Source: an uncultured Rhodospirillaceae bacterium
GTDB taxonomy: Bacteria; Pseudomonadota; Alphaproteobacteria; Rhodospirillales; UBA2165
Length of the DNA stretch: 64,000 nucleotides
Assembly (NCBI GenBank): GCA_964566055.1
Contig: CAZMHI010000022.1
Span: 213-64,212, forward strand
Direction: 5' to 3'
A program made the position numbers and the translations under genes. A model generated the notes under the pieces. That model saw nothing but the letters and a program-made list of their open reading frames with translations. It was not told where the DNA came from and searched no databases. This document shows positions 14,918 through 30,881 of this stretch, piece after piece. Within the stretch, counting starts at the first letter, position 1. Each line of letters opens with the position of its first letter.

Positions 14918-14944
14918 TCTGACGTATAAAAGAAGGAAAAGAGA

Positions 14945-15634: not shown

Positions 15635-15658
15635 TTTAAATACCAAAGGAGAAACGCA

Positions 15659-16045: not shown

Positions 16046-16076
16046 TTACCAATAACCACCAATTTTAGCATAAATC

Positions 16077-16115
16077 ACCCGCCCTTCGGCCTAATCGCTG
16101 AGGGGCGGGTTTTTT
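16077..16115 (+). terminator. Rho-independent terminator
   Basis: ACCCGCCCTTCGGC-ctaatc-GCTGAGGGGCGGGT stem (G-U pairs) followed by a T run; marks the left edge of the glycan island. Confidence 0.9.
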
Positions 16116-16293
16116 ATTTGAGGTGTTCTCAAAGTATAATTTGGGCTATTTAATTGGCGTGTAAGTAGCATTTTAACCACTCCGTGCTATAAGAGAATTT
16201 AAGATAAGCAAAATAGAGGGTTAGATAATTTTCGAGGACGTCAATTGGGTTAGCCTCTAAAATTACGAGTAGTTTTCCCATATCAGGAGAGAT

Positions 16294-17094
16294 GTGATGG
16301 CTAAAAAAAATGAGGAATTTGCACTTAAAGACCCGGTGACAGGTTCTGTTGTTACCATGGATTATGCCAGCTCGGACGAGCGGTCTGCCCGTGATGAGCT
16401 ACTGAATTCGTTTCGCGACTCTCCGATACCCGATCACTCTGTTTTAGCCAACCTAGGTCTGCATCTCACTTCAAAAACTTTTTCACGGCTGCTTTTTATG
16501 AACGAATTCTACAAAATGGGCCTGGACGTGATGGGGCAGGTTTTTGATTTTGGCACCCGATGGGGTCACAATATGGCAATCTTTATCGCTTGCCGGGGTA
16601 TGTATGAACCTTTCAACAGACACAGAAAAATTGTCGGCTTCGATACGTTTGGCGGATTTCCAACAGTGATTACAGAGGAAGACGGGCAGTCGGAAATGAT
16701 TGATGTTGGAAATATTTCCGTAACAGAGGACTACAAACCTTATCTCGATGAACATCTCAGTTTGTTAGAAAAAAATAATGCATTGCCGCATTTAAAGAAG
16801 TTTGAGCTTATGCAGGGTGATGCCTCGGAAACTATTAAGACCTATTTTGCTGATAATCCCCACGCCTTGGTATCACACGCTTTTTTTGATTTTGACCTCT
16901 ACAAGCCCACGAGAGATTGTTTGGAAGCAGTTTGGGAGCGAGCGCCCAAGGGGGCTGTTTTTGGGTTTGACGAAATAAACGATGAAGATTCTCCAGGTGA
17001 AACCCAGGCGCTTATGGAAATCGTAGGTGTATCCTCGATCAAACTCCAAAAATTTCCCTGGGTAAGTAGAGTTTCTTATTTTGTGAAAGACTAA
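16294..17094 (+). CDS. TylF/MycF-family sugar O-methyltransferase-like protein
   Basis: DFGTRWG SAM motif, GFDTFGGFP, FFDFDLY and FGFDE motifs. Confidence 0.8.
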   Translation: MMAKKNEEFALKDPVTGSVVTMDYASSDERSARDELLNSFRDSPIPDHSVLANLGLHLTSKTFSRLLFMNEFYKMGLDVMGQVFDFGTRWGHNMAIFIACRGMYEPFNRHRKIVGFDTFGGFPTVITEEDGQSEMIDVGNISVTEDYKPYLDEHLSLLEKNNALPHLKKFELMQGDASETIKTYFADNPHALVSHAFFDFDLYKPTRDCLEAVWERAPKGAVFGFDEINDEDSPGETQALMEIVGVSSIKLQKFPWVSRVSYFVKD

Positions 17095-17096
17095 GT

Positions 17097-17888
17097 ATGG
17101 CTGAAGGGTCCTTCAAGAGCGCCACCAATTCTGTTCGAAGAAAAATTCTGACCGCTATTACAAAATCCGGCAAAGGACATATCGGCGGCGCCCTCAGCTG
17201 CACGGACGTACTGTATTATTTATTTAGCGAGCAGATAGTTCATATATCACAGCCTGGTGAAAATACCGCCAGACCGTTGGTTATGAGCAAAGGTCATTCA
17301 ACTACTGCCTTACTGGCGGTCATAGACGAATTGCAAAACACCAGCTCACTTGAGCCTTACAACACCAACGGATCTTTGCGTGGCAACAATCCGTCTGAAC
17401 TCGTTGAAGGGGTTGAGTTTCATACCGGTTCACTGGGACACGGACCGGGTCTTGGAGCCGGCGTAGCACTGGCGAAAAGGTTGAGTGGCGACGACAATGC
17501 CGTCTGCATTCTAATGAGTGACGGAGAATTAAACGAAGGCTCCGTATGGGAAGCTTTTCAGTTCATTTCCAAGCACCAGCTGAATGTTTCGATATTGATC
17601 GATAACAACAATCAAATTTGTGAAGACTTTCTTGAGGATGTGTCTCCGCAGATGGATTTTAAAAGTATATTTGAGGGTCTTGGCTACGAATATTGTGAAC
17701 TGGATGGCCATTCCCCAAGCGACCTGCAAAACCTCCGGCCCTGGATTTTAGAGCGTCAGGCCCCGCGAGTTTGCTGCTTAAAAACGGTAAAGGGAAAAGG
17801 GGTTAGTTTTATGGAAAGCGTTCTCAAATGGCACCACAGCATTCCAGACGACGCCTTGTTCAAACAAGCAATGGAAGAACTGAAATAA
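17097..17888 (+). CDS. Transketolase-like enzyme, N-terminal (TPP-binding) subunit
   Basis: GHIGGALS, SKGH, TGSLGHG, SDGELNEGSVWE...DNN, WHH. Confidence 0.9.
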   Translation: MAEGSFKSATNSVRRKILTAITKSGKGHIGGALSCTDVLYYLFSEQIVHISQPGENTARPLVMSKGHSTTALLAVIDELQNTSSLEPYNTNGSLRGNNPSELVEGVEFHTGSLGHGPGLGAGVALAKRLSGDDNAVCILMSDGELNEGSVWEAFQFISKHQLNVSILIDNNNQICEDFLEDVSPQMDFKSIFEGLGYEYCELDGHSPSDLQNLRPWILERQAPRVCCLKTVKGKGVSFMESVLKWHHSIPDDALFKQAMEELK

Positions 17889-17889
17889 T

Positions 17890-18747
17890 ATGAACGATTT
17901 AAGGGATGCCTTTTTTGAAGCATTCATTGAGCTTTCCGTCTCAAATGAAAAGATTGTCCTGCTGAGCGTTGATATGGGTTCGCAGATCATCCAGAGCAAA
18001 GGTCATTTGCTGGGTGAACGCTACATTAATGTTGGTGTCAGTGAGCAAAATGCCGTTACCTTGGCTGCCGGACTCGCCTCACAAGGCTTTATTCCGTTTG
18101 TTTACGGCATCAGCTCTTTTTTGATAAACCGGCCTCGGGCCCAAATTCGTCATGACGCCATCATCGCCAACAACAATATTAATCTTATCGGGTCCGGGCC
18201 GGGATTGGCTTATGATTTAGACGGCCCCAGTCACCACTGCCTTGACGATATACAATTGATGCGCAGTTTGCCCGGCATAAAAATCTTCTCTCCGTTTGAC
18301 GCCGCGACCGCCGCATTAGCAGCTCAGGATAGTGCCAAATCTAATTGCACGACTTATTGCAGACTTGATAAAGGTTCCTATCCGCCACGATCCGAATCGT
18401 TAAATAATTTAGGGGATTTGTATATTAATCCTGGTGATCCTGAGAACTGGATAATTTCATCAGGTGTGGTTGCTCATAAAATAGACGAGGAAGACGGGCG
18501 CTCCGAAATGATCGTCTTTGCGGTGAAGGAAACAACTGGCAGTCAAATTGCCGATGAAATTCCAGAAAATGCGACCATCTCTATAAACGAGGAAGCTCAT
18601 ACTTCAGGCGGCATTCTCTCTCTGATCGCTGAAGCCAATTTGCTACATAATAAAAACTGGACATTTATTGGACCGAAATTTGAAAATAAATTTGTTCAAG
18701 AGAAATGGCCAAGAGACAAATTATTTGAGCTCTATCGCGAAAATTAG
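17890..18747 (+). CDS. Transketolase-like enzyme, pyrimidine-binding/C-terminal subunit
   Basis: NVGVSEQN, DGPSHH, YCRL; divergent, short C-terminal domain. Confidence 0.85.
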   Translation: MNDLRDAFFEAFIELSVSNEKIVLLSVDMGSQIIQSKGHLLGERYINVGVSEQNAVTLAAGLASQGFIPFVYGISSFLINRPRAQIRHDAIIANNNINLIGSGPGLAYDLDGPSHHCLDDIQLMRSLPGIKIFSPFDAATAALAAQDSAKSNCTTYCRLDKGSYPPRSESLNNLGDLYINPGDPENWIISSGVVAHKIDEEDGRSEMIVFAVKETTGSQIADEIPENATISINEEAHTSGGILSLIAEANLLHNKNWTFIGPKFENKFVQEKWPRDKLFELYREN

Positions 18748-18770
18748 ATCGCCTGTCTCTCCCTAATTAG

Positions 18771-19727
18771 TTACATTTGCTCCCGGTACCACTCGATGGT
18801 ACGGCTGAAGCCTTCGGCCAAACTGGTCGTGGTCTCGAAGCCCAGCTGTCCCCTGGCGCGTGAGCCATCCATCAATCGCACCGGTATGGTTGACGGTTTT
18901 TCAGGATCGAACCGGATATCGGCATCTTCAAATCCATCCACCTCCAAGGCGGTTTGCAAAATACCTTTGATAGATATGCCGGTGCCCGAGCAAATATTTA
19001 ATTCATCATAAAAATCGCACTTCTCGACCGCCAACATCAAGCCATCCAAAAAATCGGATATATAGATCAAATCGCGGACATCTTCGCCAGTACCCCATAC
19101 TTCCAGCGGATTATGCCGCTCCACCACCCGCCGTATCATTGCTGCCGTTACATGGGAAGTGGCAAAATCGAATTTATCATAAGGTCCGTAAATGTTAGAT
19201 GGACGGATGACCAAAGTGGACATGGGTGAGCTAATTTTAGTGGCATAAGTGCGGCAAAGAATTTCGGCATAGCGTTTCATCCAGGCCACCGGATAATAAA
19301 CATCCACCGGATCCGCATCGAACATTTCCTCTTCCGCTACTGGGCGGTCTCCGGTCGGCGGGTAGGCGGCACCGCTGCTGATAAAGACGAACTTTTTGAC
19401 ATCCACTTCATAGGCGGCTTCCAGAAGATGAGCGTTCATGACCACGTTTGGTGTCACATGTACTAAGGGTGTCGTCGCCATAACGGCCGCTCCTGAAGTA
19501 TTGGCGGCACAATGAAAAACATAATCAACACCGTCGACAGCGTTCTGGCAGGCGTTGAGATCACGCAGATCGGCGTTTAGGGTTTCTATATTTTCAGTCG
19601 ATATTTGTAGGGGTTTCTGGTGTATGGTCGCCCTCACCTGGGCACCTTCTTCGAGCAGACGGAGTAGGAGGTTCGTGGCGATAAATCCAGCGCCACCGGT
19701 AACCAAAACTTTTGCACCTTTCAACAT
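18771..19727 (-). CDS. Fcl-like NAD(P)-dependent epimerase/reductase (extended SDR), atypical active site
   Basis: TGGAGFIA, RPSNIYGPYD, SHV; VAWMK in place of YxxxK. Confidence 0.85.
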   Translation of the reverse strand: MLKGAKVLVTGGAGFIATNLLLRLLEEGAQVRATIHQKPLQISTENIETLNADLRDLNACQNAVDGVDYVFHCAANTSGAAVMATTPLVHVTPNVVMNAHLLEAAYEVDVKKFVFISSGAAYPPTGDRPVAEEEMFDADPVDVYYPVAWMKRYAEILCRTYATKISSPMSTLVIRPSNIYGPYDKFDFATSHVTAAMIRRVVERHNPLEVWGTGEDVRDLIYISDFLDGLMLAVEKCDFYDELNICSGTGISIKGILQTALEVDGFEDADIRFDPEKPSTIPVRLMDGSRARGQLGFETTTSLAEGFSRTIEWYREQM

Positions 19728-19728
19728 A

Positions 19729-20721
19729 TTATTCTTCGTGGAAGTAATTTTTACGCCCGCTCCCTTCGCTTTGGTTTTCCAGATACCATTGGTACGTGGC
19801 CTCTAACCCTTGGCGCAGGCTGGTCGACGGCTGGTAGCCAATCCATTCCCGCGCCCGCGATATGTCCATGACACGGCGGGGAAATCCCGCTGGCTTTGAG
19901 GTGTCAAATTCATGGTTAAAATTGATAAATTCATGTAGCGTTTCGACGAGCTCGCTGATCGCATAGCCTTTGCCGCTGCCCAAATTTACGAAACTGCCGC
20001 GAGTGCCGTGATGAAGTGCTAAAATCGTTCCAGCCGCAACATCTGTTGAAAAAGCAAAATCACGAACCGCACTGCCATCGCCCCAAATCAACACCGGGTC
20101 TTCGCCGCTAACGATGCGGTGGATTAAAGTCGGAATGACCATGGCGTTTTCCGGGTCAAAATTATCGCCCGGACCATAGACGTTACAGGGCCGCACAATG
20201 GCAAAATTTATCATACCATATTGCTGACGATAGGCATCAATCTGTAATTCAGCCATGCGCTTCGCCCAGCCGGGAAATTCATCCATCGGCAGGGAATCCC
20301 TGACATCGTCCCTTTCATTGAAATACTCGGCGGCGGCGTAGGCCCCAATTGAGCTGGTATAGACAGCTTTCTTGACGCCATTGATGCGGCAGGCTTCGAG
20401 AAGATTTGTGTTCATCATTAGTAGCGGCACTAGAAAACTCGCAGGTTGAGATCGTGTCACTTCGACCGAGCCTTTAATTCCAGCAATATGAAAAACAAAA
20501 TCAACGTTTTCTGTGAGATTCCGGCACACCGAAAAATCCGTCAAATCAGCAATTACCTGGTTGGCCCGTGGATCGGTTGCCATCTCATCAAGCGATACGC
20601 TGGTGACGTTGGCGCCGAAATCACATAACAATGCCACGACCTGTCTGCCGATCATACCGGTGCCACCGGTAACGATAACTTTTGAGCCGGAGAATTCTGC
20701 CGCTATTGTGGGATCAATCAT
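19729..20721 (-). CDS. Fcl-like NAD(P)-dependent epimerase/reductase (extended SDR), atypical active site
   Basis: TGGTGMIG, RPCNVYGPGDNF; PGWAK in place of YxxxK. Confidence 0.85.
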   Translation of the reverse strand: MIDPTIAAEFSGSKVIVTGGTGMIGRQVVALLCDFGANVTSVSLDEMATDPRANQVIADLTDFSVCRNLTENVDFVFHIAGIKGSVEVTRSQPASFLVPLLMMNTNLLEACRINGVKKAVYTSSIGAYAAAEYFNERDDVRDSLPMDEFPGWAKRMAELQIDAYRQQYGMINFAIVRPCNVYGPGDNFDPENAMVIPTLIHRIVSGEDPVLIWGDGSAVRDFAFSTDVAAGTILALHHGTRGSFVNLGSGKGYAISELVETLHEFINFNHEFDTSKPAGFPRRVMDISRAREWIGYQPSTSLRQGLEATYQWYLENQSEGSGRKNYFHEE

Positions 20722-20728
20722 GTACTCA

Positions 20729-21262
20729 CTAAGCCACGTTTAGACGATCACCAAGCTTTTGGCGTGCCAGAGCAAGAATGCCGATATCTGACAACAAAAC
20801 CGGTTCTCCCGAATTGGCCATCGCCAAATAATCTTCGATACTACATTCGACCAAATCGATAAATTCGCTCTCACTCGGTGTTGCAACTTTTTTTGAGTTC
20901 AACGCAGCAAAGCCGATAATTGAATATGAATGGCGATCTACACTGAGACCAAAGTTGCCAAGGGGAATTAGTTTTCCTGGCTCATAGCCGGTTTCTTCAA
21001 GTAATTCGCGCCGCATTGCCTGTTCTGGTTTTTCATTTTCTTCCATAAAACCGGCTGGGAATTCGATGGTTTTGCAGCCCCGCGCGGGACGAAACTGCTT
21101 AACCAATACGATCTTTTCATCTTCGGTCAACAGCAGCGCGACCACGCCATCATTGCTGTCGATGCGATAAAAAGGTTGCGAACCGATCCCCCAAGCCGGT
21201 TCAGAAGACACTTCGGTGATGCTGAACCAATCGGTGTGAAAAACGGTTTTATCTTCGCTCAT
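20729..21262 (-). CDS. Nudix hydrolase (NDP-sugar pyrophosphatase-like)
   Basis: Nudix box GFMEENEKPEQAMRRELLEETGY; QFRP and EFPAG. Confidence 0.9.
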   Translation of the reverse strand: MSEDKTVFHTDWFSITEVSSEPAWGIGSQPFYRIDSNDGVVALLLTEDEKIVLVKQFRPARGCKTIEFPAGFMEENEKPEQAMRRELLEETGYEPGKLIPLGNFGLSVDRHSYSIIGFAALNSKKVATPSESEFIDLVECSIEDYLAMANSGEPVLLSDIGILALARQKLGDRLNVA

Positions 21263-22230
21263 TAAGCTCTCTGTTGTAAACGTTGACGATGATAGTTCAG
21301 CAAATCTTCGAGCGTTTGTTCAAGCGGGTATTCGGGCTGCCATCCGGACTGCTCGCGAAATTTTGTATTCTCGGGAATCTGCAATGTTACATCCGCCGGA
21401 CGTAACAGTTCAGGATCGACCGCATGTTCTATTGGCACCTTGGCATACGATTTTAGGATGTCGAGCATCTCACCAATCGTCAGTGTCCGATTGCCGCCAA
21501 TATTGTAAACTTCACCCGGTGTACAATGTTCTAATAACGCCCAATAAGCGCGGACTGCATCACGGACATCAGCATAAGTGCGGATACTTTCCAGATTACC
21601 TACCTTAATCGGATTTTCGACAAGTCCGAGCTCGACTTCGGCAATTTGTTTGGCAAAGGCACTTTCGGCGAAGAAATCTCCCCGCCTGGGGCCGGAATGG
21701 GTAAACATCCGCGTCCGGATAATCTTCATGCCATAGGAAATGTGGTACTGTTTACCCAACATATCCTGTCCGACTTTAGAAACCGCATAGGGGCTGGCAG
21801 GATTTAGCGGCGTATTTTCCGTTATCGGAATCATGCTTTCATCAACTTGGCCGTAGACTTCAGCTGAACTGCATATATGGATCATTGGATCGATACCGAC
21901 ATTCCGAATGGCATCGAGCAAATTTACTGTGCCAATAACATTTACCGTAAAGGTATCGCCGGGACTCTCGTAACTGATTGGCACAAAACTTTGCGCTGCA
22001 AGATGAAAAATGCGATCAGGTCGAATATGGTCAATGACTTCAATCATTGAGGAGAGGTCTCTAAGCTCACCCTGAACCAGTTCTATATTGTCAATTCTTC
22101 CGCGAATGTTATCTAATGGGCTGCGCCAGCGAACCAATCCATAGACATCAACATTCGGATGGGTATCAATGACGTAATCGGCCATGTGGCTGCCCACCAT
22201 GCCGGTAATACCAGTAATTAGAAGTTTCAT
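21262..22230 (-). CDS. gmd: GDP-mannose 4,6-dehydratase
   Basis: GITGMVG, HLAAQSFV, SSAEVYG, PYAVSK, GNLESIRTYADVRDAVRAYW, LLRPADV. Confidence 0.8.
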   Translation of the reverse strand: MKLLITGITGMVGSHMADYVIDTHPNVDVYGLVRWRSPLDNIRGRIDNIELVQGELRDLSSMIEVIDHIRPDRIFHLAAQSFVPISYESPGDTFTVNVIGTVNLLDAIRNVGIDPMIHICSSAEVYGQVDESMIPITENTPLNPASPYAVSKVGQDMLGKQYHISYGMKIIRTRMFTHSGPRRGDFFAESAFAKQIAEVELGLVENPIKVGNLESIRTYADVRDAVRAYWALLEHCTPGEVYNIGGNRTLTIGEMLDILKSYAKVPIEHAVDPELLRPADVTLQIPENTKFREQSGWQPEYPLEQTLEDLLNYHRQRLQQRA

Positions 22231-22246
22231 TTAATTCTGCTTTTTT

Positions 22247-23314
22247 CTAAAAAGGTCCACGGAAATGTTTATAAGTGTCGGTCATCGGTTTTTTCTCCGG
22301 CAGATCAATGCCATGGAGCTCTGCGCCGGTAACAGTTTTACAAATTGCGTCACAAAGGTCATGTAAATCCGGATAATATAAATCCTCTAATGTTTTGGCG
22401 GTCGGGCACGGTGCTGGCGCCATCCCCAGAGTAACAACCGGCGCCTGTAAAGCCGAGGGCGCCGTTTCACATACGAGCCGGCAAATTTCTGCTGCCACAC
22501 CATAAGCTTGCCAGCTGGTATCGGCAATGAGCAATCTGCCAGTTCTGAGAACACTATCAATAATCATTTCAGAATCCGGGCTGGTCGCGCAATTTAGATC
22601 GATCACATCACATTTGATGCCGGCTGTAGCCAGATGATCGGCTGCCCGTTCGGCTTCCAGAACCATTATGGATGTCGCCACCACGGTGATATCATCTCCT
22701 CGCCGCAAATGTCGTGAGCCAAGAGGATTTTCGGCTTTCGAAATTTGCTCCCGGTCGACCTTAAAATCCAGCTCATACAGCAGCCGGTGTTCGAAGCTGA
22801 TAACCGGGCCAGCGAATTCGTTGGTAGCATATGGATAGGCACCCAAAATAGCAGATGAATCCGAGGGCATAATAACCGTCAATCCGGGAATATGGGCAAA
22901 CAGAGATTGCAAGCTTTGGGTATGCTGGGCACCCTGGCCCCAACTTCGCCCAACAACCGCCCTGATGAGCATTGGCACTTTAAACAGACCGCCAAACATA
23001 TAACGATATTTAGCCACCAAATTAATAATCTGATTGGTGGCCAGCAGCATAAAATCGGCGCGAATATGGGTCATGATCGGATACATACCGTTCAAAGCTG
23101 CGCCGACAGAAATGCCGGTAACGGCTTCTTCGGCGAGCGGCGTATCCAAAACGCGTCCGCCGCCATACTTTTCAGCCAGTCCGAGGGTCGTGCCGAATAT
23201 ACCTTTATGGTCATCGACGCCTTGGCCAATGATGAAGGCATCATCATTGCCGGCCATGGCGCCATCCATGCACTCAAACAAAGCTTCCCGGTATTTAACA
23301 ATTTCTGTAGTCAT
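22247..23314 (-). CDS. Pyruvate-dehydrogenase E1 beta-like subunit (glycan-cluster type)
   Basis: GQGV, DTPLAE, GQGAQHTQS; ATG 23314 lies 2 nt after the alpha stop. Confidence 0.9.
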   Translation of the reverse strand: MTTEIVKYREALFECMDGAMAGNDDAFIIGQGVDDHKGIFGTTLGLAEKYGGGRVLDTPLAEEAVTGISVGAALNGMYPIMTHIRADFMLLATNQIINLVAKYRYMFGGLFKVPMLIRAVVGRSWGQGAQHTQSLQSLFAHIPGLTVIMPSDSSAILGAYPYATNEFAGPVISFEHRLLYELDFKVDREQISKAENPLGSRHLRRGDDITVVATSIMVLEAERAADHLATAGIKCDVIDLNCATSPDSEMIIDSVLRTGRLLIADTSWQAYGVAAEICRLVCETAPSALQAPVVTLGMAPAPCPTAKTLEDLYYPDLHDLCDAICKTVTGAELHGIDLPEKKPMTDTYKHFRGPF

Positions 23315-23316
23315 TA

Positions 23317-24246
23317 CTAAACAACATCCGTCAATAAAATGGCTTGCCCCGGCCATTCGCTTTTTTCAGCAAAGTCGACTGCCGCATCGATTGCTTGGCT
23401 GATTTCAGCTTCCAACAATGCTACGGTTTCGGTATCGCGAATAAGCGGATCATTAATACTCCATTTCTCAAATTCCTCCCGGCTGCGATAACCGGCTTCA
23501 AAATCATCGCCCGGCCCTACATGTTCTCGGGCCCGCATGGTTTTAATCTCAAGATATTGAGGCCCGCCGCCACCCCGGACCTTCGCCGTCAGCTCAGACA
23601 TTGCTTCATATATCTTCATAAAATCCAAGCCGTCTTCAAGGCGCTGGGTCGGAATCTTATAGGTGTCCAATAATTCCAGCCGATTAAACTTCTGCCGTGA
23701 CTCAATTGGCGAATGTGCAGCGAACCCGTTATCTTCACAAACCAGGATTAACGGCAAGTTGTGGAGTGAGGCAAAGTTGAGACTTTCATGGGCAACACCT
23801 TCTTCAAGCGCGCCATCACCAAAAAACGCCACATTGACCTGATCGCTTTGCCGGTGTTTGGCGGCAAAAGCTGCACCGACCGCATGAGGGATTGAACTGG
23901 CGACCACTGCGGAGGAACCCATCATACCAACCTCCGGTGCGGCCAGATGCATTGAGCCGGCTTTGCCTTCGGAAACACCGGTAACTTTACCGTAAAGTTC
24001 CGCGAACATGAGGGCCAGATCGCCTCCCTTGGCAATATAAACGGCGTGGCTCCGATAAGTGCCAAAAACCCAATCTTCTTGGCGCAAGGCGTGGCAGACA
24101 CCAACCGCGACGGCCTCCTGGCCAATAGACAAATGAACAGGGCTTTGAATTTTATCGAAAGGATAGAGCTCAATTATGCGTTCTTCGACCCGGCGAATAG
24201 TTAAAGCGTCATGAAAAAGGCGAGTATACAGATCCTGCGAGGGCAT
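23317..24246 (-). CDS. Pyruvate-dehydrogenase E1 alpha-like subunit (glycan-cluster type)
   Basis: GQEA, YRSH, GSMH, FFGDGALEEG...EDN TPP motif. Confidence 0.9.
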   Translation of the reverse strand: MPSQDLYTRLFHDALTIRRVEERIIELYPFDKIQSPVHLSIGQEAVAVGVCHALRQEDWVFGTYRSHAVYIAKGGDLALMFAELYGKVTGVSEGKAGSMHLAAPEVGMMGSSAVVASSIPHAVGAAFAAKHRQSDQVNVAFFGDGALEEGVAHESLNFASLHNLPLILVCEDNGFAAHSPIESRQKFNRLELLDTYKIPTQRLEDGLDFMKIYEAMSELTAKVRGGGGPQYLEIKTMRAREHVGPGDDFEAGYRSREEFEKWSINDPLIRDTETVALLEAEISQAIDAAVDFAEKSEWPGQAILLTDVV

Positions 24247-25220
24247 TAATGTACTTTCCCTGTGTCAGCTGAATTATTGAGAAACCACTTATAGGTTTTT
24301 TGCAAACCTTCTTCGATTGTCATATTTGCTGTCCAGCCAATTTTCTCCATCCGCGTTCGATCCAAAAGTTTCCGTGGCGCGCCATCCGGTTTGGATCGAT
24401 CAAATTTCAACTGTCCGTCAAAACCGACAACTTTGCAAATGGCTTCGGCCAGCCCCCGAACCGATAATTCCTGGCCCGATCCGATGTTGATGGGAATGGC
24501 ATCGGAGTAGTTCTTCAACAAAAAAACGACCGCATCAGCCAGATCGTCAACATACATAAATTCCCGCTTCACTTTGCCGGAACCCCACACTTCAAGCGCC
24601 TTAGCATTTTCTACTTTAGCTTTATGAGCTTTGCCCAAAAGAGCAGGGATAACGTGACTGGTTTCGGGATCGTAGTCGTCACCCGGACCGTACAGATTGT
24701 TCGGTTGGGCGGCAATAAAGTCACTACCGTATTGTTCCCGGTAGGCTTGGCATAGTTTAATGGCAGCGATTTTAGCCACAGCATGCCACTCATTGGTGGG
24801 TTCCAGAGGGCCGGTCAAAAGTGCCTCTTCGACCATCGGCTGCGCAGATTCTCTGGGATAAATGCAAGCCGAGCCGATAAATAATAGTTTCTCAACATTA
24901 TGGAGGTGAGCCGCCTGAATGATGTTGCTGGCGATCATTAAATTGTTGTAGAGGAAATCAACCGGGTAATTAATGTTGGACATAATGCCGCCGACAGTCG
25001 CTGCAGCAACAACAATCGCTTGAGGTTTGGCATCGCCGACCCACTGCCCAACGTCAAATTGATTCCTAAGGTCCAAATCTGACCGTGCGATAGTTTGGAC
25101 TTCACACCTTTCAGGTGACAGCCGACGCACAACTGCAGAACCAACCATACCGTTGTGGCCAGCAACCCACACACGTTTGCCCAGCAACGAATAAAGAGGA
25201 GATTTATTCGAATCGTTCAT
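24246..25220 (-). CDS. fcl: GDP-L-fucose synthase-like epimerase with catalytic Tyr replaced by His
   Basis: AGHNGMVGSA, AATVGGI, GSACIYP, LEPTNEWHAVAK, PNNLYGP, SHVIPAL, REFMYVDD; ATG 25220 chosen. Confidence 0.9.
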   Translation of the reverse strand: MNDSNKSPLYSLLGKRVWVAGHNGMVGSAVVRRLSPERCEVQTIARSDLDLRNQFDVGQWVGDAKPQAIVVAAATVGGIMSNINYPVDFLYNNLMIASNIIQAAHLHNVEKLLFIGSACIYPRESAQPMVEEALLTGPLEPTNEWHAVAKIAAIKLCQAYREQYGSDFIAAQPNNLYGPGDDYDPETSHVIPALLGKAHKAKVENAKALEVWGSGKVKREFMYVDDLADAVVFLLKNYSDAIPINIGSGQELSVRGLAEAICKVVGFDGQLKFDRSKPDGAPRKLLDRTRMEKIGWTANMTIEEGLQKTYKWFLNNSADTGKVH

Positions 25221-25301
25221 TACCGTGACTATAAAGTAAAATTGAAAACAAAAGTTTAATTTCACGCTGCTACAGCGATGTTCGAAATTTAAAAAATCTG
25301 C

Positions 25302-26288
25302 TCATTGTTCCATCGATTGGGCCAAAAGTTTTTGCTGTTGCCGCAATAATTGCTGAGTTTTCATATTGATAATTTGCGGTGTCATTTTCTCTAAATGAGC
25401 CTCGGCCTGGCGGAGCGCCTTTAGGTAGGTTTCATCTTTAATCTCAGATTCGGCGGAAAAAGCCAATTGATGAACGTGCAGCTGGTCCGGCGGCAATTCA
25501 TCTTCGGCTTCCTGCTGAAATTCCTCGATTTTGTCGTTCAAAAATTCGAAAGCCTGACTTTGCGCCAATTTGTTATCGCTGTGTAAATAGCCAATTAGTT
25601 GTTTTGCGGTTTCTACCCGCTCAGCCAGTAAAAGGTGAAAAAACTGGGTCCAGAATGGAAGGTCCCACAACCGGTGTGTTGTTCCTTTTTTTCCATCCAT
25701 AGGGAATAACTTGATCGGAACACAGTATTTTCGATCCACCATCTCGGCGATCTGCTGTAGCCATTTATCGCCAAACCAATAGGGAAAATGGGGCACAATA
25801 AAATGCCCAACAAGGTTTACCCATTGAGCGGTTGTGACCATCGTGGTGATGCCGCCTTCTGGCATAATTGGATCAGGCAAATATCCTACGGCGACGCGGT
25901 CGGTTGGCAAATTGTGGAACCATTCAAGCATTACAACGTCCCAACCGGGGGTCATCAATTCATAGTCATCGGGAAAGCCAAAATAGAGGCCAGCATTTGA
26001 ACTGTTCCGCCATAGTTCAGTAAATGCATCGCCATGGGTAATGGGTCTGGAACTGACATGCCAATGGACCTTAAAACCGATCGACTTATCCCAACCGGAG
26101 GCGATCAAATCATGGGTTTTACTGTCATCGTCATCCACATAAATCCAAAGATCAATGTGATCTTTATTAACCGCTTGGTTATCGAGAGAACTGATCGCGC
26201 GTTTCACCTTTTCAGGCCGCCCGCGGGTCAGCATAAGGATGTTAATATGATCTGGATCGTCAATGGGTATAGGTTCAATATCAGTCAT
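25302..26288 (-). CDS. Putative GT-A fold (GT2-like) glycosyltransferase
   Basis: ILMLTRGRP, YVDDDD and FPDDY acidic motifs. Confidence 0.6.
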   Translation of the reverse strand: MTDIEPIPIDDPDHINILMLTRGRPEKVKRAISSLDNQAVNKDHIDLWIYVDDDDSKTHDLIASGWDKSIGFKVHWHVSSRPITHGDAFTELWRNSSNAGLYFGFPDDYELMTPGWDVVMLEWFHNLPTDRVAVGYLPDPIMPEGGITTMVTTAQWVNLVGHFIVPHFPYWFGDKWLQQIAEMVDRKYCVPIKLFPMDGKKGTTHRLWDLPFWTQFFHLLLAERVETAKQLIGYLHSDNKLAQSQAFEFLNDKIEEFQQEAEDELPPDQLHVHQLAFSAESEIKDETYLKALRQAEAHLEKMTPQIINMKTQQLLRQQQKLLAQSMEQ

Positions 26289-26344
26289 CAGGAAACTTAA
26301 ATTTCATTACAGCGGATGTAGATTACTAACTTAGCAAAGTAAGT

Positions 26345-28405
26345 TTACCACACGCCTACCCCTTCTGATTTATCATCATGTGCATCATGCAGGTTTCCAT
26401 CTGCACTTTCAAATGGCGCTTGATCACTGGCATACCATTGGGCCGGCCAAAGTATGTCATCGTTTTTTCTACCATATACAACACGTTCCAAGGCGAAGAG
26501 GTTCAGATCACCTTCGTAGTCGATTGGTTCAATGTATAAAATCTGACTTAGATCACGAATTGCCACCGGTTCTACAGTGACCACATGTTCCATAAATTCA
26601 GGGACATTGTAGCGAAATTGCCATTGTTGAATGGGAGGTGCCTCGGCGCTAGGCATACGCAACCATTGATATCGAACGACTTCCGAAAGCAAATCCAGAT
26701 CTATGGTAACGCTTCGGGCATTTAAAAAAGCGCAAAGCAATTCTTCCATTTCTTGGAAGAAGCGGTCTTTTTCTGCAGCAAAACTAAGGAAAGAGCAATC
26801 TTCAGTGAACCAGTAAAGTTCGCCGTAACCTTCATATTCCACGCCCCAACCGGCGCCGTTGTAAATATCCTCCAGGCGCATTTCATAATAATCCATTTCT
26901 TCCGAGACCAGGGAGGAAGGCATGAGGGCTGGCGCCTCATCAACCAGGAACCGGACAAAATCGGTAAAAGGAATATCCAGATGCCGGCGTAAGAAAAACA
27001 AGATGTAGGAACTTGCGCCGAGGCTATGGAGAGCCATCATCAACCAGGCAAATTTCCAGGTACGCCGCCATTGATCATGGGGCATGGAGGCAGTTTCGAC
27101 AACGATTGGTACGTTTTCCATCACTTTATCGGAACTAATAGTGGCACAATGGATGGGTTTGATATCTGATTTTCGCAGTTTTATGCCAAATTGAGCCTGA
27201 TAGTCCGGGTCACCCATATCGGTATTGGGAAAGGCTTCAAGCCAATACAAATACAGCGATCTCAGTTCCGAATTCAGCACGTCTTCCACCCCGGCAATAA
27301 AACTATCGTAAGTTTCTCCTGGTAAGCCTACGATCATTTCAGTCCAGGTGGGAATTCCAGATTGGGCGAATTTGCTCTGCAGTGAGCGATAGGTATCCAT
27401 TTTGATGTTGCCGCGCTTAATATTGGCAAGAACTGTCTTACTATTACTTTGGCGCGAAAGATTTACACCTTTGTCGAGGCCGTGATCGAATAGTAATTTC
27501 CCAGTATCAAATACATTGGTATCGGTGTTTTTGCCATAACAGACTCTAAAACGTTGTGGATAGCCATAGCGTTTTTTAGCATCGGCAAAAGCCTGCGCCA
27601 GTTCAATATCCCGCCGGTGCATACCAAAATTTGAATCGGCGCCAAAAACGTAGCCAATTTTATTCTGACCAATCCACTCGATTTCCTGCTTCGACCGTTC
27701 CAAGCTGTGATATTTGAAACGCCGACCGATGTCACCTTTACCCCAGTAGCAAAAGGTGCATTGAAACGGACAGCCACGATTTGATTCTAAGATGGCTTGA
27801 AAAGAAAACTGCGGATTTTCGCTGATTAAATTATCAAACAATCCTCCGACATAGGGCGAGGGCATATTGTCCAGGTCTCGCTCGAAAGGATATTCTCCTT
27901 CGTTGACCATGATGCTTTCACCATCACGCCAGCTTACCTGTGGAATGTCTGCAAATTCCCGGGAGGAAAGATTGCGAACCAAAATGTCGCCGAAAGGCAA
28001 TTCGCCCTCGCCTCTTACACAGACATCAATAAACGGATGTTCTATCATAAACTCAGTCGGATCATGCGGTACACTACCACCGCCAAAAATGATCAGACAA
28101 TTCGGATAGCGTGCCTTAATTTCACGGGCGACGTGAAGCGATAAATTGGCGCTCCAGGAATAAAGAGAAAATGCTGCCACATCGGGTTCATCAATTTGGG
28201 CTAATATATTTTCCGGTAAATCTGCTTTGAACAGGTAGGGCGCAAACTCGTAACCTTCACGAATGGCTGGAATTTCGCGTGCATAGGCATGAAGGCAGCC
28301 TGACACCAACGGCAGATAAGCGCCGTTGTCATGTACTAGATTGTATTCGTTCAGGTAGACGCGTGCTCTGGACCGAGATTCTAATTCGGACGACTTAATA
28401 TCCAT
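26345..28405 (-). CDS. Cobalamin-binding radical SAM protein
   Basis: N-terminal B12-binding-type domain (FSLYSW...IIFGGGSV), RGCPFQCTFCYWG CxxxCxxC, ADSNFG, EMIVGLPGET. Confidence 0.9.
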   Translation of the reverse strand: MDIKSSELESRSRARVYLNEYNLVHDNGAYLPLVSGCLHAYAREIPAIREGYEFAPYLFKADLPENILAQIDEPDVAAFSLYSWSANLSLHVAREIKARYPNCLIIFGGGSVPHDPTEFMIEHPFIDVCVRGEGELPFGDILVRNLSSREFADIPQVSWRDGESIMVNEGEYPFERDLDNMPSPYVGGLFDNLISENPQFSFQAILESNRGCPFQCTFCYWGKGDIGRRFKYHSLERSKQEIEWIGQNKIGYVFGADSNFGMHRRDIELAQAFADAKKRYGYPQRFRVCYGKNTDTNVFDTGKLLFDHGLDKGVNLSRQSNSKTVLANIKRGNIKMDTYRSLQSKFAQSGIPTWTEMIVGLPGETYDSFIAGVEDVLNSELRSLYLYWLEAFPNTDMGDPDYQAQFGIKLRKSDIKPIHCATISSDKVMENVPIVVETASMPHDQWRRTWKFAWLMMALHSLGASSYILFFLRRHLDIPFTDFVRFLVDEAPALMPSSLVSEEMDYYEMRLEDIYNGAGWGVEYEGYGELYWFTEDCSFLSFAAEKDRFFQEMEELLCAFLNARSVTIDLDLLSEVVRYQWLRMPSAEAPPIQQWQFRYNVPEFMEHVVTVEPVAIRDLSQILYIEPIDYEGDLNLFALERVVYGRKNDDILWPAQWYASDQAPFESADGNLHDAHDDKSEGVGVW

Positions 28406-28700
28406 TGATCAGCCTTCTCTCAACTCACCATATTCCGACTACACCGTTCATCGTCTCTATCTTATAGGACGGACTTTGGAAAATCATACCATAAAGAAGA
28501 ATAAAAATTGGTTACTCAATGGCGATGAATTTCTCAACGTGAAGAAAAGTCATCTAATCAGGAAAACAGTTGCTATTCATTGTAGATATCTAGCTATATT
28601 ATTCTTCATGCCGGATTGTGGCAATTTGGCCAATTTAGCAGGAACGGAGAATAATCTGTGGATATTAGTAAATTTAATCTGGAGCCATGCAACAAGATAA

Positions 28701-30881
28701 ATGAAATATATGCTCTCGCCGTCATTAAGCCGTCCGATGACGAGTGATTTTCGCCCTGGGTTCCGTTTCCGACCGAGTATCTCCGATATTGAACAAAGTT
28801 ATAATGCGGCCCGTGACGCTCTTTTGGCCGGTAATTACGAATTGGCCGCCAAACTTGCCAGAGATGAAGACGACCTGGAAATACTAGGTTGTGCCCTGAT
28901 CGGTTGTGGCGCTGTGGGCCGGGGACTAAATTTTCTTGATCAATCGGCTCCTAGCCATGACGACACCGCCCTCTTCCAAGCTTTTGCAAATTGGTGTTTG
29001 GGTAACGTGGAGCAAGCAATTCAAAAGCTGAACGATCTGGCAGCAGGCGACTATGCGGTAAAAGCGCGGAAGTTTATTAAACTGATTTCCAAGGAGCAGA
29101 CCAAAGTAGTCATCTTTTACCCGCCTGAATTTTCGCCACCGCCAACGGACCGATCAATTCCTGGACTCGAGCTTCGAGAATTGTATTCAGGTAATTTCGA
29201 TCCCACCCAATCCTTACATGAGATATTAGATGAGGATTTTGATCCTGAAGTAATTATTTCTTTGGGGCTGTTCGGCGAAAAACTACCGCGCCAATTGAGT
29301 GCGTTCGAATGCCGGTTCGTGATGCTGGCAGTGGATTTTGACATCTACTTTGCCAGTCAAGCTGAAGAATTGATGCGAGCAGACGTTATTTTGTCCGCCT
29401 GCAGCTACGAACATCATTGTCTAACTGAAATGTATAGCGGGCGCGTGGCGGCTTTTCCAGGCCTATCCTTTGACACAGAAACCGGCTACGAAGGTACCGG
29501 ATGGCACACCGACAAAGATATTGATATATTTTTTTCCGGTCGGGCTTTCTATCGTCATGCACTGGAAAAAGCGCGTATCCTGTTTCGCATTGCCACAATC
29601 GATGACCCTGAATTGAACATCCTAATTCACCACGGCTATATGGATGCAGATAATTATCGAAGAAATATGGAGCGGGCCAGGATCATTCCGATTATTCATC
29701 GCTTTCCGTTTACCATTACCCAGGGGCGCTTTGTATCGGCGGTACGATTTGGAAGTACTGTAATTACTGACGAAGGAATTTTGCCGGAAGTTTGTCTCGA
29801 TTTAACCGCTGGTGTTTCGCGAAAATTTAATCAGGAGCATATTGAAGAAAATCTTGAGGATATTCTAAGAAACAACGAGGCAATTCGCGAATATGCGTTG
29901 CAAAATAAAAAAGAAATTGCAAAAGAGCTAGACGATATGTTTTGGGCTCCTCCCCAACGCGAGGAGAGATTAATCAAATTTGCTTTGTTTCAAGCAGTAT
30001 TAGCCGACGATCAAGGTTCCAATCAAATTGAACCTCCGCATTCTGACTCTACGGTACCAATTGCTACCGAGCACCGTCAGGCGGAAATTTCCTTCGCTGC
30101 ATTCCTGGACCAACCTCTCGATGTTGAAATCCGCCGCCAAACGCTGCTCGATTTTGAAGCTGGTCTCGCATCGAAATCATATTCCCTCGCTTTGAGATTT
30201 AATTTTGCTCGATTTTTGTGGATAGATGGCGATCGGCAGTCATCTCTGGCCCAGTTCGAGATCGCAGCGAATTTATGCGATGATGGTGAGTTCGATCCCT
30301 TGCGTGATAGTTTGCATTCGCATTTGCTTCAACCACTAGGCGACATGATGCCGTACCAGGAATTTTACGTGCGCTCGGTCACGGATATTCTTGGTGGGGA
30401 CAATAATTACGCTGGTGCGCGTGCGGTAATTGCTTCTACGATTGCGACCTACCAAGCAGTGGATAAACTTCAAAAAGATCTGTTTGAAGATGGTATTGAG
30501 AGACTTCATCAGGCATTGCATTTTTTTGACGATAATTTTATTGCTTTGAGGCTTTTGACCAAAGCTTATGCGGCGGCAGGTTGGCCACCCGACGATATTG
30601 CCGCAGCCTTTCACAGGACGCTCAAGCTGTACCCACCATTTATTACTGAATTGCTGCCAATTGGTTTACTGGCTGAACGAAATTTTGGCCGGGATCTAAA
30701 TGCTTTAGAGTGGGTGAAGAAATGGGCTTATTTCATGGTACGTGTCAACTGGGGTGATGCCAATGCGCACGCCATTCCGGCTCAAACCTGGGAACATGCC
30801 CAATATTATTTTCACAGGCTACCGGTCAGGTTGCGCAATCAACTTGCTGACAAATTTCCAGACAAGGTACATATCAAATAG
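28701..30881 (+). CDS. Large hypothetical protein with glycosyltransferase-like (GT-B/CgeB-like) core and TPR-like helical ends
   Basis: 726 aa; DIDIFFSG...Y..NMERARI central segment; helical repeats at both ends; weak similarity only. Confidence 0.5.
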   Translation: MKYMLSPSLSRPMTSDFRPGFRFRPSISDIEQSYNAARDALLAGNYELAAKLARDEDDLEILGCALIGCGAVGRGLNFLDQSAPSHDDTALFQAFANWCLGNVEQAIQKLNDLAAGDYAVKARKFIKLISKEQTKVVIFYPPEFSPPPTDRSIPGLELRELYSGNFDPTQSLHEILDEDFDPEVIISLGLFGEKLPRQLSAFECRFVMLAVDFDIYFASQAEELMRADVILSACSYEHHCLTEMYSGRVAAFPGLSFDTETGYEGTGWHTDKDIDIFFSGRAFYRHALEKARILFRIATIDDPELNILIHHGYMDADNYRRNMERARIIPIIHRFPFTITQGRFVSAVRFGSTVITDEGILPEVCLDLTAGVSRKFNQEHIEENLEDILRNNEAIREYALQNKKEIAKELDDMFWAPPQREERLIKFALFQAVLADDQGSNQIEPPHSDSTVPIATEHRQAEISFAAFLDQPLDVEIRRQTLLDFEAGLASKSYSLALRFNFARFLWIDGDRQSSLAQFEIAANLCDDGEFDPLRDSLHSHLLQPLGDMMPYQEFYVRSVTDILGGDNNYAGARAVIASTIATYQAVDKLQKDLFEDGIERLHQALHFFDDNFIALRLLTKAYAAAGWPPDDIAAAFHRTLKLYPPFITELLPIGLLAERNFGRDLNALEWVKKWAYFMVRVNWGDANAHAIPAQTWEHAQYYFHRLPVRLRNQLADKFPDKVHIK

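Follow-up and report, generated by a model that had tools for sequence, protein, structure and literature searches.

The stretch of 64,000 nucleotides analysed here (the window, which lies on contig C22 of the genome of an uncultured marine Rhodospirillaceae bacterium) carries between 16.1 and 30.9 kb a block of low GC content which is, as far as its sequence tells, a horizontally acquired and mobile island, and which appears to be a member of a large, widespread and undescribed family of cassettes for the tailoring of GDP-linked sugars. At its core are two genes, I and H, for the alpha and beta subunits of a stand-alone thiamine diphosphate (ThDP)-dependent E1 enzyme, adjacent to gene G for a GDP-sugar 4,6-dehydratase, and the addition of a two-carbon (C2) branch to a GDP-4-keto sugar by this E1 pair is well supported by the genomic context. 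The whole proposed pathway, as the work of a horizontally acquired cassette that tailors a GDP-sugar, we consider fairly probable, and its product would probably be a carbon-branched or chain-extended surface sugar of undescribed structure. In what follows, letters A to M denote genes of the island (Table 1), C-numbers contigs of its own genome and L-numbers related loci (L095 being assembly GCA_018672875.1), while G003 and G007 are genomes of the same genus. All the genes that a first-pass annotation of this DNA had named in the block are present where it had placed them, according to the listing of open reading frames and profile searches, and its interpretation of them finds partial support.

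The E1 pair, the dehydratase and the conserved cassette

Protein I matches E1_dh (PF00676) with 173.7 bits, H contains Transket_pyr (PF02779) and Transketolase_C (PF02780), and their genes overlap or abut; relatives of H have 355–359 residues and align with it from residues 9–15. The claim of the first-pass annotation that this pair comes without E2 and E3 was borne out, as neither is encoded on the 64-kb contig C22 (PF00198 being used for E2) or among the recurrent gene families of 77 related loci, and there is no E2 in the gene tables examined. The domain architecture of I and H is that of an ordinary E1, with clear similarity to the models of pyruvate dehydrogenase (PDH) E1, and the genome holds five E2 genes (on contigs C5, C13 and C55, and two on C24), which would suit a catabolic 2-oxo-acid or acetoin dehydrogenase component that takes its E2 and E3 from elsewhere and stands among sugar genes by coincidence. 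We find this explanation highly improbable. Neither PDH E1-alpha equivalog accepts protein I, which gets 252 bits on TIGR03182 (394 needed) and 165 bits on TIGR03181 (411 needed); H likewise stays under the cut-offs of the E1-beta models, 321 and 454 bits, with scores of 240 and 226, respectively, and no E2 adjoins the pair. Six other E1 alpha/beta pairs are present in the genome, four of which adjoin an E2 gene (on contig C13, twice on C24 and on C55), so that only one of the five E2 genes, that of contig C5, is without an E1 pair next to it, and no E1 alpha or beta relative lies on its contig. In addition, the adjacency of the E1 pair to the dehydratase is kept across many phyla. In a maximum-likelihood tree of E1 alpha, protein I and 64 sugar-linked relatives form one clade (65 rows, SH-aLRT 90) which excludes all six paralogues of the same genome, while the second E1 alpha copies carried by some cassettes form a well-supported subclade of their own. 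That the E1 pair is not a housekeeping enzyme is thus supported. The first-pass annotation had expected the ThDP pairs to stand apart from housekeeping enzymes and to occur together with gmd/fcl-type genes, and both were observed here, with a separate clade of E1 alpha and a G-like dehydratase in 46 of the 48 long loci described below. The remaining two of these six paralogous pairs stand in tandem at positions 1791–5874 of contig C40, with no E2 on that contig and with long branches in the E1 alpha tree.

A pattern scan for E1 alpha relatives over one genome per species (185,579 species) gave 509 stretches that encode a relative of I, from many phyla, and proteins with 57–92% identity to I are found in many metagenomes and phyla. 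The best 80 of the 509 stretches were taken with 10-kb flanks; their hosts include Reyranella, Enhydrobacter, Azospirillum, Terasakiella and many Nitrospirales, and further cyanobacteria, Verrucomicrobiota, Omnitrophota, Marinimicrobia and Chloroflexota. Counts of cassette genes refer to the 48 loci of at least 16 kb, all of them obtained through E1 alpha, and belonging to Pseudomonadota, Nitrospirota, Cyanobacteriota, Verrucomicrobiota, Chloroflexota, Bacillota and others. Both E1 genes are present in all 48, and a G-like dehydratase (at least 45% identity) lies beside the pair in 46, which makes the three genes a conserved triad. They are accompanied by an HddA-like GHMP kinase (41 loci), HddC- and/or GmhB-like genes, often fused (35), an aldo-keto reductase (34), a methyltransferase of 323 residues (34), an RmlC-like epimerase (28), an A-like methyltransferase (20), a Nudix protein (19), a B12 radical S-adenosylmethionine (SAM) enzyme (19), a split transketolase pair (17) and a second E1 alpha/beta pair (11). 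The survey of gene order that had been proposed from the sequence alone thus shows a cassette which recurs in many unrelated genomes, in an association far beyond chance. The cassette begins immediately behind flgJ-flgN-flgK-flgL-fliW in ten Nitrospirales loci and has fliF, flgE and flgD as neighbours in Terasakiella sp. A23, which points to glycosylation of flagellin in these hosts. No flagellin gene was found near the island of the window, and as the two flagellin genes of its own genome sit on contigs C35 and C47, far from it, the flagellar link holds for the relatives only.

Among solved structures, G comes closest to the GDP-D-glycero-D-manno-heptose 4,6-dehydratase from Campylobacter jejuni (7US5, E = 4.2e-78, 266 bits), followed by Rmd (2PK3, a GDP-4-keto-6-deoxymannose reductase) and then by Gmd proteins. 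The catalytic motifs S/T-x-E and YxxxK are present, and the motifs CSS[SA]EVYG and ASPYAVSK are conserved in 51 members of the family. On the gmd equivalog (TIGR01472) G reaches 165 bits, with a cut-off of 415, and a canonical gmd-fcl pair on contig C6 holds the closer Gmd candidate. The earlier reading of G as Gmd is corrected by this, as G is a GDP-sugar 4,6-dehydratase that stands nearer to the GDP-heptose enzyme than to Gmd; the proposal that the pathway is GDP-linked agrees with our results, as the best solved relatives of G are all GDP-sugar enzymes and J is a derivative of GDP-fucose synthase. The kinase, phosphatase and guanylyltransferase of the related cassettes best match the route to GDP-D-glycero-alpha-D-manno-heptose, with scores below the equivalog cut-offs, and 41 of 46 relatives have such heptose genes in linkage. 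Because of these linked genes, and of the nearest structure of G, the substrate of the family is probably a GDP-heptose.

The island itself contains no heptose genes. HddA-, HddC- and GmhB-like genes are found on contig C56, a SIS_2 (GmhA-type) gene on contig C7 and a ManC-type gene on contig C69, and since these occur in the genome together with the gmd-fcl pair of contig C6, both GDP-heptose and GDP-mannose seem to be available here and both are possible substrates. The subclade that carries J (the window, L003, L007, L008 and L095) has neither heptose genes nor RmlC in cis, so J may be a functional stand-in for an RmlC-type 3,5-epimerase, and its ancestry fits GDP-4-keto-6-deoxymannose. The heptose-type genes of contig C56 belong to a second glycan cluster (12893–21943), which is probably the source of GDP-heptose in this genome. 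Besides the HddC-like nucleotidyltransferase and the HddA-like kinase, this cluster encodes a B12 radical SAM protein (496 residues), a second split transketolase pair (272 and 317 residues, 31% and 26% identical to B and C, respectively), a D-2-hydroxyacid dehydrogenase, two short-chain dehydrogenases/reductases (SDRs) and a DegT aminotransferase; the GmhB-like phosphatase lies at 8717–9391 of the same contig, and a paralogue of K and a GT28-like gene are at the contig end.

Sugar-modifying enzymes and the split transketolase

Three SDRs of the island are related to Fcl (GDP-L-fucose synthase), and none of them has the Ser-Tyr-Lys triad, the Cys/His dyad and the score that mark this enzyme. 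The closest is J, with 468 bits on the Fcl model (cut-off 500). Its NEWHAVAK segment aligns with NEAYAIAK of 7LL6, so that the catalytic tyrosine is replaced by histidine, and the Cys/His epimerase dyad is kept. The same histidine is found in three E1-linked relatives among the loci obtained (L003, L007 and L008), and the canonical Fcl of contig C6 has tyrosine. As this change recurs among the relatives of J, a role of J as an epimerase that spares the 4-ketone for the ligase is supported. Protein D belongs to the Epimerase family (148 bits on the Fcl model); compared with GMER of Escherichia coli, Tyr136 is replaced by Val and Cys109 by Ala, and His179 is kept. Its family motif, xY[FY]xxxWMKR, is conserved in 26 members, with an invariant tyrosine seven residues before the lysine. 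Protein E (169 bits on the same model) has no equivalents of the Tyr, Cys and His of GMER, and the motif of its family, D.[FYI][PA]G[WIL]AKR, has no conserved tyrosine.

The Nudix protein F (NUDIX, 67.5 bits) gives weak matches to NudE, YffH and NudK, and has a homologue in 19 of the 48 long loci. Methyltransferase A matches, over residues 26–256, PDB 3TOS/4GF5 with E = 4e-45, that is CalS11, the TDP-rhamnose 3'-O-methyltransferase of calicheamicin, and in Pfam it has sub-threshold matches to Methyltransf_24 and TylF alone (E = 0.11 for TylF, which is not significant). The name TylF given to this gene in the first-pass annotation is right at the level of the superfamily, and the Pfam family itself is not matched significantly; more specifically, A resembles the nucleoside diphosphate (NDP)-sugar O-methyltransferase CalS11, and due to this similarity it would act as an O-methyltransferase on a nucleotide sugar.

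Genes B and C encode the two parts of a split transketolase. Protein B matches Transketolase_N (56.8 bits) and, among structures, best fits 6YAK (E = 2.6e-35), the N-chain of a split transketolase from Carboxydothermus hydrogenoformans; the motifs GH.GG, SKGH, TGSLGHG, SDGELNEG...N (DGE.NEG) and WHH are all present in it. Protein C, with 285 residues, matches Transket_pyr (89 bits, residues 3–165) and 6YAJ of the same organism (E = 8.6e-23), keeps the glutamate of EQN and the histidine of DGPSHH, and has no match to Transketolase_C, like its relatives, which have 285–292 residues and Transket_pyr only. On the transketolase equivalog B and C reach 149 and 89 bits, far below the cut-off of 488, and a full-length housekeeping transketolase (Tkt) is encoded on contig C74 (a frame of 668 residues, 462 bits on PF00456), which supports the proposed non-housekeeping nature of the pair. 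The B subfamily is a group of its own, and its closest relatives (50–91% identity) are members of trios of an A-like methyltransferase, a transketolase N subunit and a short pyrimidine-binding subunit. The A-B-C trio is conserved at 47–96% identity beside E1 alpha/beta, dehydratase and SDR genes in L095, L096, L097 and L111, where the gene orders differ and a kinase and a nucleotidyltransferase are usually present too. Homologues of A (62–96% identity) lie directly upstream of the B-type pairs in L095, L096, L097 and L112, and a gene of 264 residues takes this place in L111.

A fifth trio, in L112 (Logan SRR12983653_317, 8213–14161), has phage-like surroundings, and neither an E1 pair nor a dehydratase is encoded within 9 kb of it. 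It consists of an A-like methyltransferase, a transketolase N subunit, a short pyrimidine-binding subunit and a SIS-like protein of 181 residues, followed by two Glyco_transf_61 genes, and the phage-like genes of the contig are HNH_3, LexA_DNA_bind, DUF932, RNase_T and an InPase protein of 2214 residues.

The linkage to the cassette is conserved for a second transketolase subfamily as well, which directly follows dehydratase-E1 alpha-E1 beta or the Nudix gene in Nitrospirales and in IMG/VR contigs. The IMG/VR cassettes with a transketolase have no kinase or nucleotidyltransferase match within 10 kb. Three of these contigs (L114, L115 and L116, 46–101 kb, viral by the classification given) carry most of the cassette, the order in L114 being G-like dehydratase, E1 alpha, E1 beta, transketolase N and C subunits and the 323-residue methyltransferase, with an aldo-keto reductase, an A-like methyltransferase and an E-like SDR further on. 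In L113 (Desulfuromonadaceae), where there is no E1 pair, a nucleotidyltransferase gene and an SDR gene are immediately followed by two transketolase pairs, and L003/L005, the nearest metagenomic relative of the cassette of the window, has a ThDP enzyme of acetolactate synthase (ALS) type in addition to an E1 pair and a transketolase pair. As loci with E1 and transketolase, with two E1 pairs, with E1, ALS-type enzyme and transketolase, and with two transketolase pairs are all found, several ThDP ligases per cassette seem to be a recurrent design. About half of the 48 long loci have a second ThDP ligase, and the transketolase pair and the second E1 pair never occur together in them (3.9 such loci expected, P = 0.004 if the loci are independent), and this mutual exclusion suggests that they are alternatives for the same second step. 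The transketolase pair is accompanied by the A-like methyltransferase and by the aldo-keto reductase in 15 of 17 loci each, the second E1 pair by a classical SDR in 10 of 11, and all 19 loci with a B12 radical SAM gene lack the transketolase pair.

In L096, L097, L111 and L112 the transketolase pair is directly followed by a gene for a protein of about 180 residues with a GmhA-like GHGGNLAIADHA motif (positions 3800–4339, 11379–11933, 10645–11217 and 10652–11197, respectively), whose conserved motif reads GHGGNLAIADHAA(V/I)DxTR. No homologue of this SIS-like protein was found in the genome of the window.

Layout of the island and genes K, L and M

The positions of the island genes are collected in Table 1. 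The gaps between A, B and C are 2 and 1 nucleotides, and the minus-strand genes from L to D are separated by at most 56 nucleotides or overlap, so that L to D look like one transcription unit; M is divergent from L. A promoter scan gave no more matches than were found in shuffled sequence. GC content is 44–50% across 16–32 kb and 52–57% in the flanks.

Table 1. Features of the island, their positions in the window and their predicted assignments
Feature	Position	Strand	Assignment
Strong terminator-like hairpin	16077..16110	+	Stem of 14 bp (10 GC pairs), then a run of T; marks where the island begins on the left
A	16294-17094	+	CalS11-like NDP-sugar O-methyltransferase, TylF superfamily
B	17097-17888	+	Split transketolase, N-terminal (diphosphate-binding) subunit; Transketolase_N
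C	17890-18747	+	Split transketolase, pyrimidine-binding subunit, short form; Transket_pyr alone
D	18771-19727	-	Fcl-like extended SDR, catalytic Tyr shifted (Y-x6-K)
E	19729-20721	-	Fcl-like extended SDR without equivalents of Tyr136, Cys109 and His179
F	20729-21262	-	Nudix hydrolase, NudK/YffH/NudE-like
G	21262-22230	-	GDP-sugar 4,6-dehydratase, GDP-heptose dehydratase type
H	22247-23356	-	E1 beta; true start probably Met at 23314
I	23317-24246	-	E1 alpha (ThDP-binding), sugar-linked clade
J	24246-25265	-	GDP-fucose-synthase derivative, catalytic Tyr replaced by His; true start probably Met16
K	25302-26288	-	No family match; possibly GT-A-type glycosyltransferase, coiled-coil tail
L	26345-28405	-	KedN5-like radical SAM enzyme, cobalamin-dependent; opens the minus-strand operon
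M	28701-30881	+	Tetratricopeptide repeat (TPR) protein, poorly modelled central alpha/beta domain

On the left, the hairpin closes the upstream gene, and DNA homology stops at 16115 against G007, which has no island, and at 16045 against contig C86 of G003. The same genes are found at the same site, after a DUF2848 gene and a gene of 128 residues, in L095 and on contig C79 of G003, and the E1 alpha gene has a patchy distribution in the genus (4 of 12 genomes). The site after the 128-residue gene and the terminator (window 15659–16115; relatives L108 and L110) is a variable hotspot, which holds the sugar island in the window, in L095 and on contig C79 of G003, products that start like ATPase activators of 2-hydroxyacyl-CoA dehydratases (as read from their first residues) in G007, and a UbiD-like gene with TTT-transporter-like genes on contig C86 of G003. 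Because both versions of the hotspot occur in G003, this metagenome-assembled genome (MAG) may mix strains. G007 and contig C86 of G003 were considered as clean empty sites and rejected, since they diverge right after the 16.1-kb terminator and carry other genes there, and for the same reason only the left junction is defined. To the right, the class II aldolase gene at 30913–31623 (minus strand), which has a paralogue with 87% identity on contig C52, probably belongs to the neighbouring MarR/UbiD catabolic cluster and not to the sugar island.

Protein L has B12-binding and Radical_SAM domains, and on the KedN5 subfamily model (NF033712) it scores 249.5 bits, with a cut-off of 700, over residues 31–408 only. 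It is 31–36% identical to the radical SAM enzymes which are integral to related cassettes, and about as similar to paralogues in its own genome; the window is the sole locus seen to combine a transketolase pair with a B12 radical SAM gene. What links L to the sugar is its packing into the operon of this one genome, and its part in the pathway, like that of M, is uncertain.

The first-pass annotation had also mentioned glycosyltransferase (GT)-like genes, and this is weakly supported for K and not supported for M, which has TPR-type repeats. Protein K has no match in family profile searches or in PDB, no homologue in the related cassettes, and a model with a predicted local distance difference test (pLDDT) value of 49.6; when its family was aligned by hhalign with a GT2 protein of the same genome, the match had a probability of 0.13 and was not significant. 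The paralogue of K on contig C1 (tblastn, E = 1e-10) passes Pfam Glycos_transf_2 with 25.9 bits (cut-off 23.3), due to which K is a weakly supported candidate for a GT-A-type transferase. For M (726 residues) there is no match in Pfam, NCBIfam or PDB (phmmer), and only 5 homologues were found; its AlphaFold model, made from 6 sequences, has pLDDT 63, with less than 50 in the central domain, and its Foldseek matches are TPR proteins only. A paralogue of M at positions 51350–55685 of contig C2 (707 residues, 29% identity) is followed by a GT2 gene (346 residues) and a Glyco_trans_1_2 gene (386 residues), which links the M family to glycosyltransferases at this second locus.

Proposed pathway and relation to known systems

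From the gene contents, motifs and linkage described above, we infer the following chemistry, order of steps and product. The dehydratase G would oxidise and dehydrate a GDP-sugar to a GDP-4-keto-6-deoxy intermediate, the sugar probably being GDP-D-glycero-alpha-D-manno-heptose in the family, and here either this heptose, made with the genes of contig C56, or GDP-mannose. With its dyad kept and its reductase tyrosine replaced by histidine, J would epimerise C3/C5 and leave the 4-ketone in place, after which the stand-alone E1 pair would decarboxylate pyruvate and add the hydroxyethyl-ThDP carbanion to the keto group, giving a C-acetyl branch on a tertiary alcohol. D would reduce a ketone, probably that of the branch, by means of its shifted tyrosine. 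B/C may carry out a second ThDP-dependent C-C step, in which a glycolaldehyde unit is most likely passed to a keto group on the GDP-sugar, and A would O-methylate the nucleotide sugar, whose product would then be moved to a surface glycoconjugate, probably flagellin in the relatives from Nitrospirales and Terasakiella. The action of the transketolase on a GDP-sugar ketone is supported by its place among tailoring genes, in some loci with no kinase within 10 kb, and by its mutual exclusion with the second E1 pair; two successive additions are a further inference. To hypothesise, two or more ThDP ligases per cassette could act in turn on one GDP-4-keto sugar to give multiply branched or extended C9–C11 higher sugars on flagellin or other surface structures, an idea which we put forward tentatively and hold as possible though doubtful. 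If true, these sugars would form a class of bacterial monosaccharides of their own, new to science, and a transketolase would for the first time be seen to take the ketone of a nucleotide sugar as its acceptor.

Several observations weigh against the proposed pathway. The island has no kinase, phosphatase, nucleotidyltransferase, flippase/polymerase or confirmed glycosyltransferase, which bears on both the substrate and the destination of the sugar, and E lacks every known catalytic residue of its family. In C, one phosphate-binding histidine equivalent is lost according to our reading of the alignment, yet the Arg/Lys positions are kept, so the residues of the phosphate site are not decisive. 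The statistic for mutual exclusion ignores the kinship of the loci, with Reyranella dominating one class and Nitrospirales the other. The Pfam SIS matches of the protein that follows the transketolase pair are sub-threshold (E = 0.012–0.047), and this protein fits a role on sugar phosphates at least equally well. Finally, in the MAG of L007, which has the J-to-D cassette, homologues of L and M (74% and 52% identity) stand side by side on another contig, among unrelated genes.

It could be that B/C works at the sugar-phosphate stage and makes a ketose phosphate precursor, such as sedoheptulose-7-phosphate or an unusual heptulose or octulose phosphate, which would be isomerised, phosphorylated at C1, dephosphorylated and activated with GDP, so that only the E1 pair acts on the GDP-sugar and there is one branch, not two. 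The formation of GDP-octose in lincomycin biosynthesis by LmbR/N/P/K/O follows this logic. The SIS-like protein behind the transketolase pair in four loci would be in its place here, B and C keep the canonical catalytic residues of transketolases, and HddA-like kinases and HddC/GmhB-like genes are frequent in the long loci, the kinases with such low scores (122–151 bits, equivalog cut-off 600) that their substrate could be a different sugar phosphate. We nevertheless think that this account is rather unlikely, as the island of the window and L095 have no SIS-like gene, kinase or nucleotidyltransferase, the genome already has a housekeeping Tkt, and loci with and without a transketolase pair have the kinase equally often. 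In Nitrospirales, IMG/VR contigs and L113 the transketolase pairs are placed among dehydratase, SDR, aldo-keto reductase and methyltransferase genes, several with no kinase within 10 kb; mutual exclusion with the second E1 pair is not expected of a precursor-supplying enzyme, and isomerisation of a glycolyl (ketol) branch would suit the SIS-like protein just as well.

The first-pass annotation had proposed that GDP-mannose is processed by Gmd, receives an acetyl unit from E1 and then a glycolyl unit from the transketolase, and is reduced, O-methylated by A and C-methylated by L to give a caryophyllose-like higher branched sugar. The ManC-type gene of contig C69 would make GDP-mannose available, J descends from a true Fcl, with GDP-4-keto-6-deoxymannose as substrate, in a subclade without heptose genes in cis, L and the sugar genes are transcribed together to judge by their spacing, and B12 radical SAM genes are integral to 19 of the 48 related cassettes. 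This version is unlikely in our view, since the GDP-heptose dehydratase is the nearer relative of G and of its whole family, which is linked to heptose genes, nothing shows both ligases acting on one molecule, and the cassette radical SAM enzymes, to which L is no more than 31–36% identical, co-occur with the transketolase pair in none of 17 loci. C-methylation by L is doubtful, as L and M are an independent pair elsewhere. Both caryophyllose and erwiniose have been explained by one ligation of YerE type, in which a long keto acid (C6 for caryophyllose) is used on a CDP-sugar (PMC9306805), for which reason the product is not expected to be caryophyllose-like in its biosynthesis. Erwiniose, caryophyllose and bradyrhizose were considered as products and gave no direct match, the scheme for the first two using YerE-type enzymes and CDP-sugars, and the organisms named for the three sugars are absent from the hosts of the best 80 E1 alpha loci. 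A mosaic of modules that do not cooperate (A-B-C, D to J, K, and L/M), which make two modified sugars or of which L/M is unrelated, would explain why A-B-C is found without E1 or dehydratase on the phage-like L112, L and M together without the cassette, and K without a homologue in related cassettes, and why the window alone, among loci seen, pairs a transketolase with a B12 radical SAM gene. We judge such a mosaic improbable too, because the genes from L to D are packed like a single transcription unit, the low GC content is common to the entire block, and A-B-C is linked to E1 and dehydratase genes in five of six contexts (the window, L095, L096, L097 and L111, and not L112).

If the proposed tailoring pathway is correct, the family would be of interest at several levels. 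To our knowledge, ThDP branching of nucleotide sugars has so far been confined to one enzyme type of enterobacterial O-antigens (YerE) and to actinomycete antibiotic pathways. Through the family, this chemistry would reach GDP-activated sugars, probably heptoses, and many phyla, among them nitrifiers (Nitrospirales), cyanobacteria and marine Rhodospirillales; it would also take in surface or flagellar glycosylation and combinations of two ligases in one pathway. Cultivable carriers in which the sugar could be sought are Terasakiella sp. A23, Reyranella soli, Enhydrobacter aerosaccus and Azospirillum oleiclasticum. The family also offers candidate biocatalysts that form tertiary alcohols, split transketolases included, and natural examples of Fcl-fold proteins in which the SDR tyrosine is lost or moved.

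Among known systems, the closest are the aKADH2 pathways, with which the cassette shares, by gene arrangement, a two-gene ThDP-dependent E1 without E2/E3 in a nucleotide-sugar cluster, adjoining a 4,6-dehydratase, and the expected chemistry, in which an acetyl anion derived from pyruvate is added to a sugar ketone to give a tertiary alcohol and the branch's keto group is then modified. The known aKADH2 examples use dTDP-hexoses, according to the first-pass annotation, and a single ligase, and belong to the secondary metabolism of Actinomycetota, whereas this cassette is GDP-linked, apparently heptose-based in most members, spread over many phyla, placed beside flagellar genes in some of them, and often equipped with a second ThDP ligase. 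In the literature, keto sugars receive C2 branches from pyruvate at C3 or C4 through the action of aKADH2 E1 pairs, which include those of aldgamycin (AlmDI/DII), avilamycin (AviB1/B2), paulomycin, trioxacarcin, kosinostatin and kibdelomycin (KbDH-alpha/beta) (PMC12247030). What the first-pass annotation had stated of such enzymes agrees with the published accounts, except that branching of the aldgarose type takes place at C3 (PMC9306805, PMC12247030). As summarised in a review (PMC12247030), the survey of Krug et al. (2024) comprises about 120 aKADH2 clusters and 13 split transketolases, the latter all in Streptomycetes; going by this summary, the survey may already list some of the E1 pairs described here. 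Full-text literature searches turned up no publication that describes an E1 or transketolase pair within a cluster for a GDP-sugar, heptose or flagellin.

The YerE-type enzymes (yersiniose A, ErwE of erwiniose, and those proposed for caryophyllose and gastriose) have in common with the proposed pathway a ThDP-dependent C-C ligation at the 4-keto group of an NDP-deoxy-keto sugar, a surface polysaccharide as destination, and the NAD(P)H-dependent reduction of the branch (PMC9306805). They differ in being single-chain members of the decarboxylase (ALS-like) superfamily that use CDP-3,6-dideoxy-4-keto sugars, and their longer branches come from longer keto acids and not from repeated C2 additions (PMC9306805); the window has no ALS-like gene, and L003 has one in addition to its E1 and transketolase pairs. 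Split transketolases inside sugar-tailoring clusters, with a proposed transfer of a C2 ketol to a keto sugar, are shared with miharamycin and amipurimycin, for the hydroxyacetyl branches of which such enzymes have been proposed and their activity on ketones never demonstrated (PMC12247030). Unlike those, B/C belongs to a distinct subfamily, has a short C subunit without Transketolase_C, and is preceded by a CalS11-like methyltransferase.

The pathways to GDP-6-deoxy-heptoses in capsule and O-antigen of Campylobacter jejuni and Yersinia pseudotuberculosis provide the best solved relative of G, and their HddA-, GmhB- and HddC-like genes, RmlC-like epimerases and Fcl-like SDRs have counterparts in the related cassettes. 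These pathways just epimerise and reduce the 4-keto intermediate, with no ThDP enzyme, while in the cassette the Fcl-like proteins have a lost or shifted catalytic tyrosine and ThDP ligases are inserted after the dehydratase. The gmd-fcl-gmm module of colanic acid and GDP-fucose synthesis is similarly GDP-linked and clusters a dehydratase, an Fcl-type protein and a Nudix protein, but in the island G is below the gmd cut-off, J is without the reductase tyrosine, and the Nudix protein is of NudK/YffH type and not Gmm. Taken together, the kind of chemistry, ThDP-dependent sugar branching by a stand-alone E1 pair, is known, and its GDP-linked variant with two ligases, spread over many phyla, appears to be as yet undescribed.

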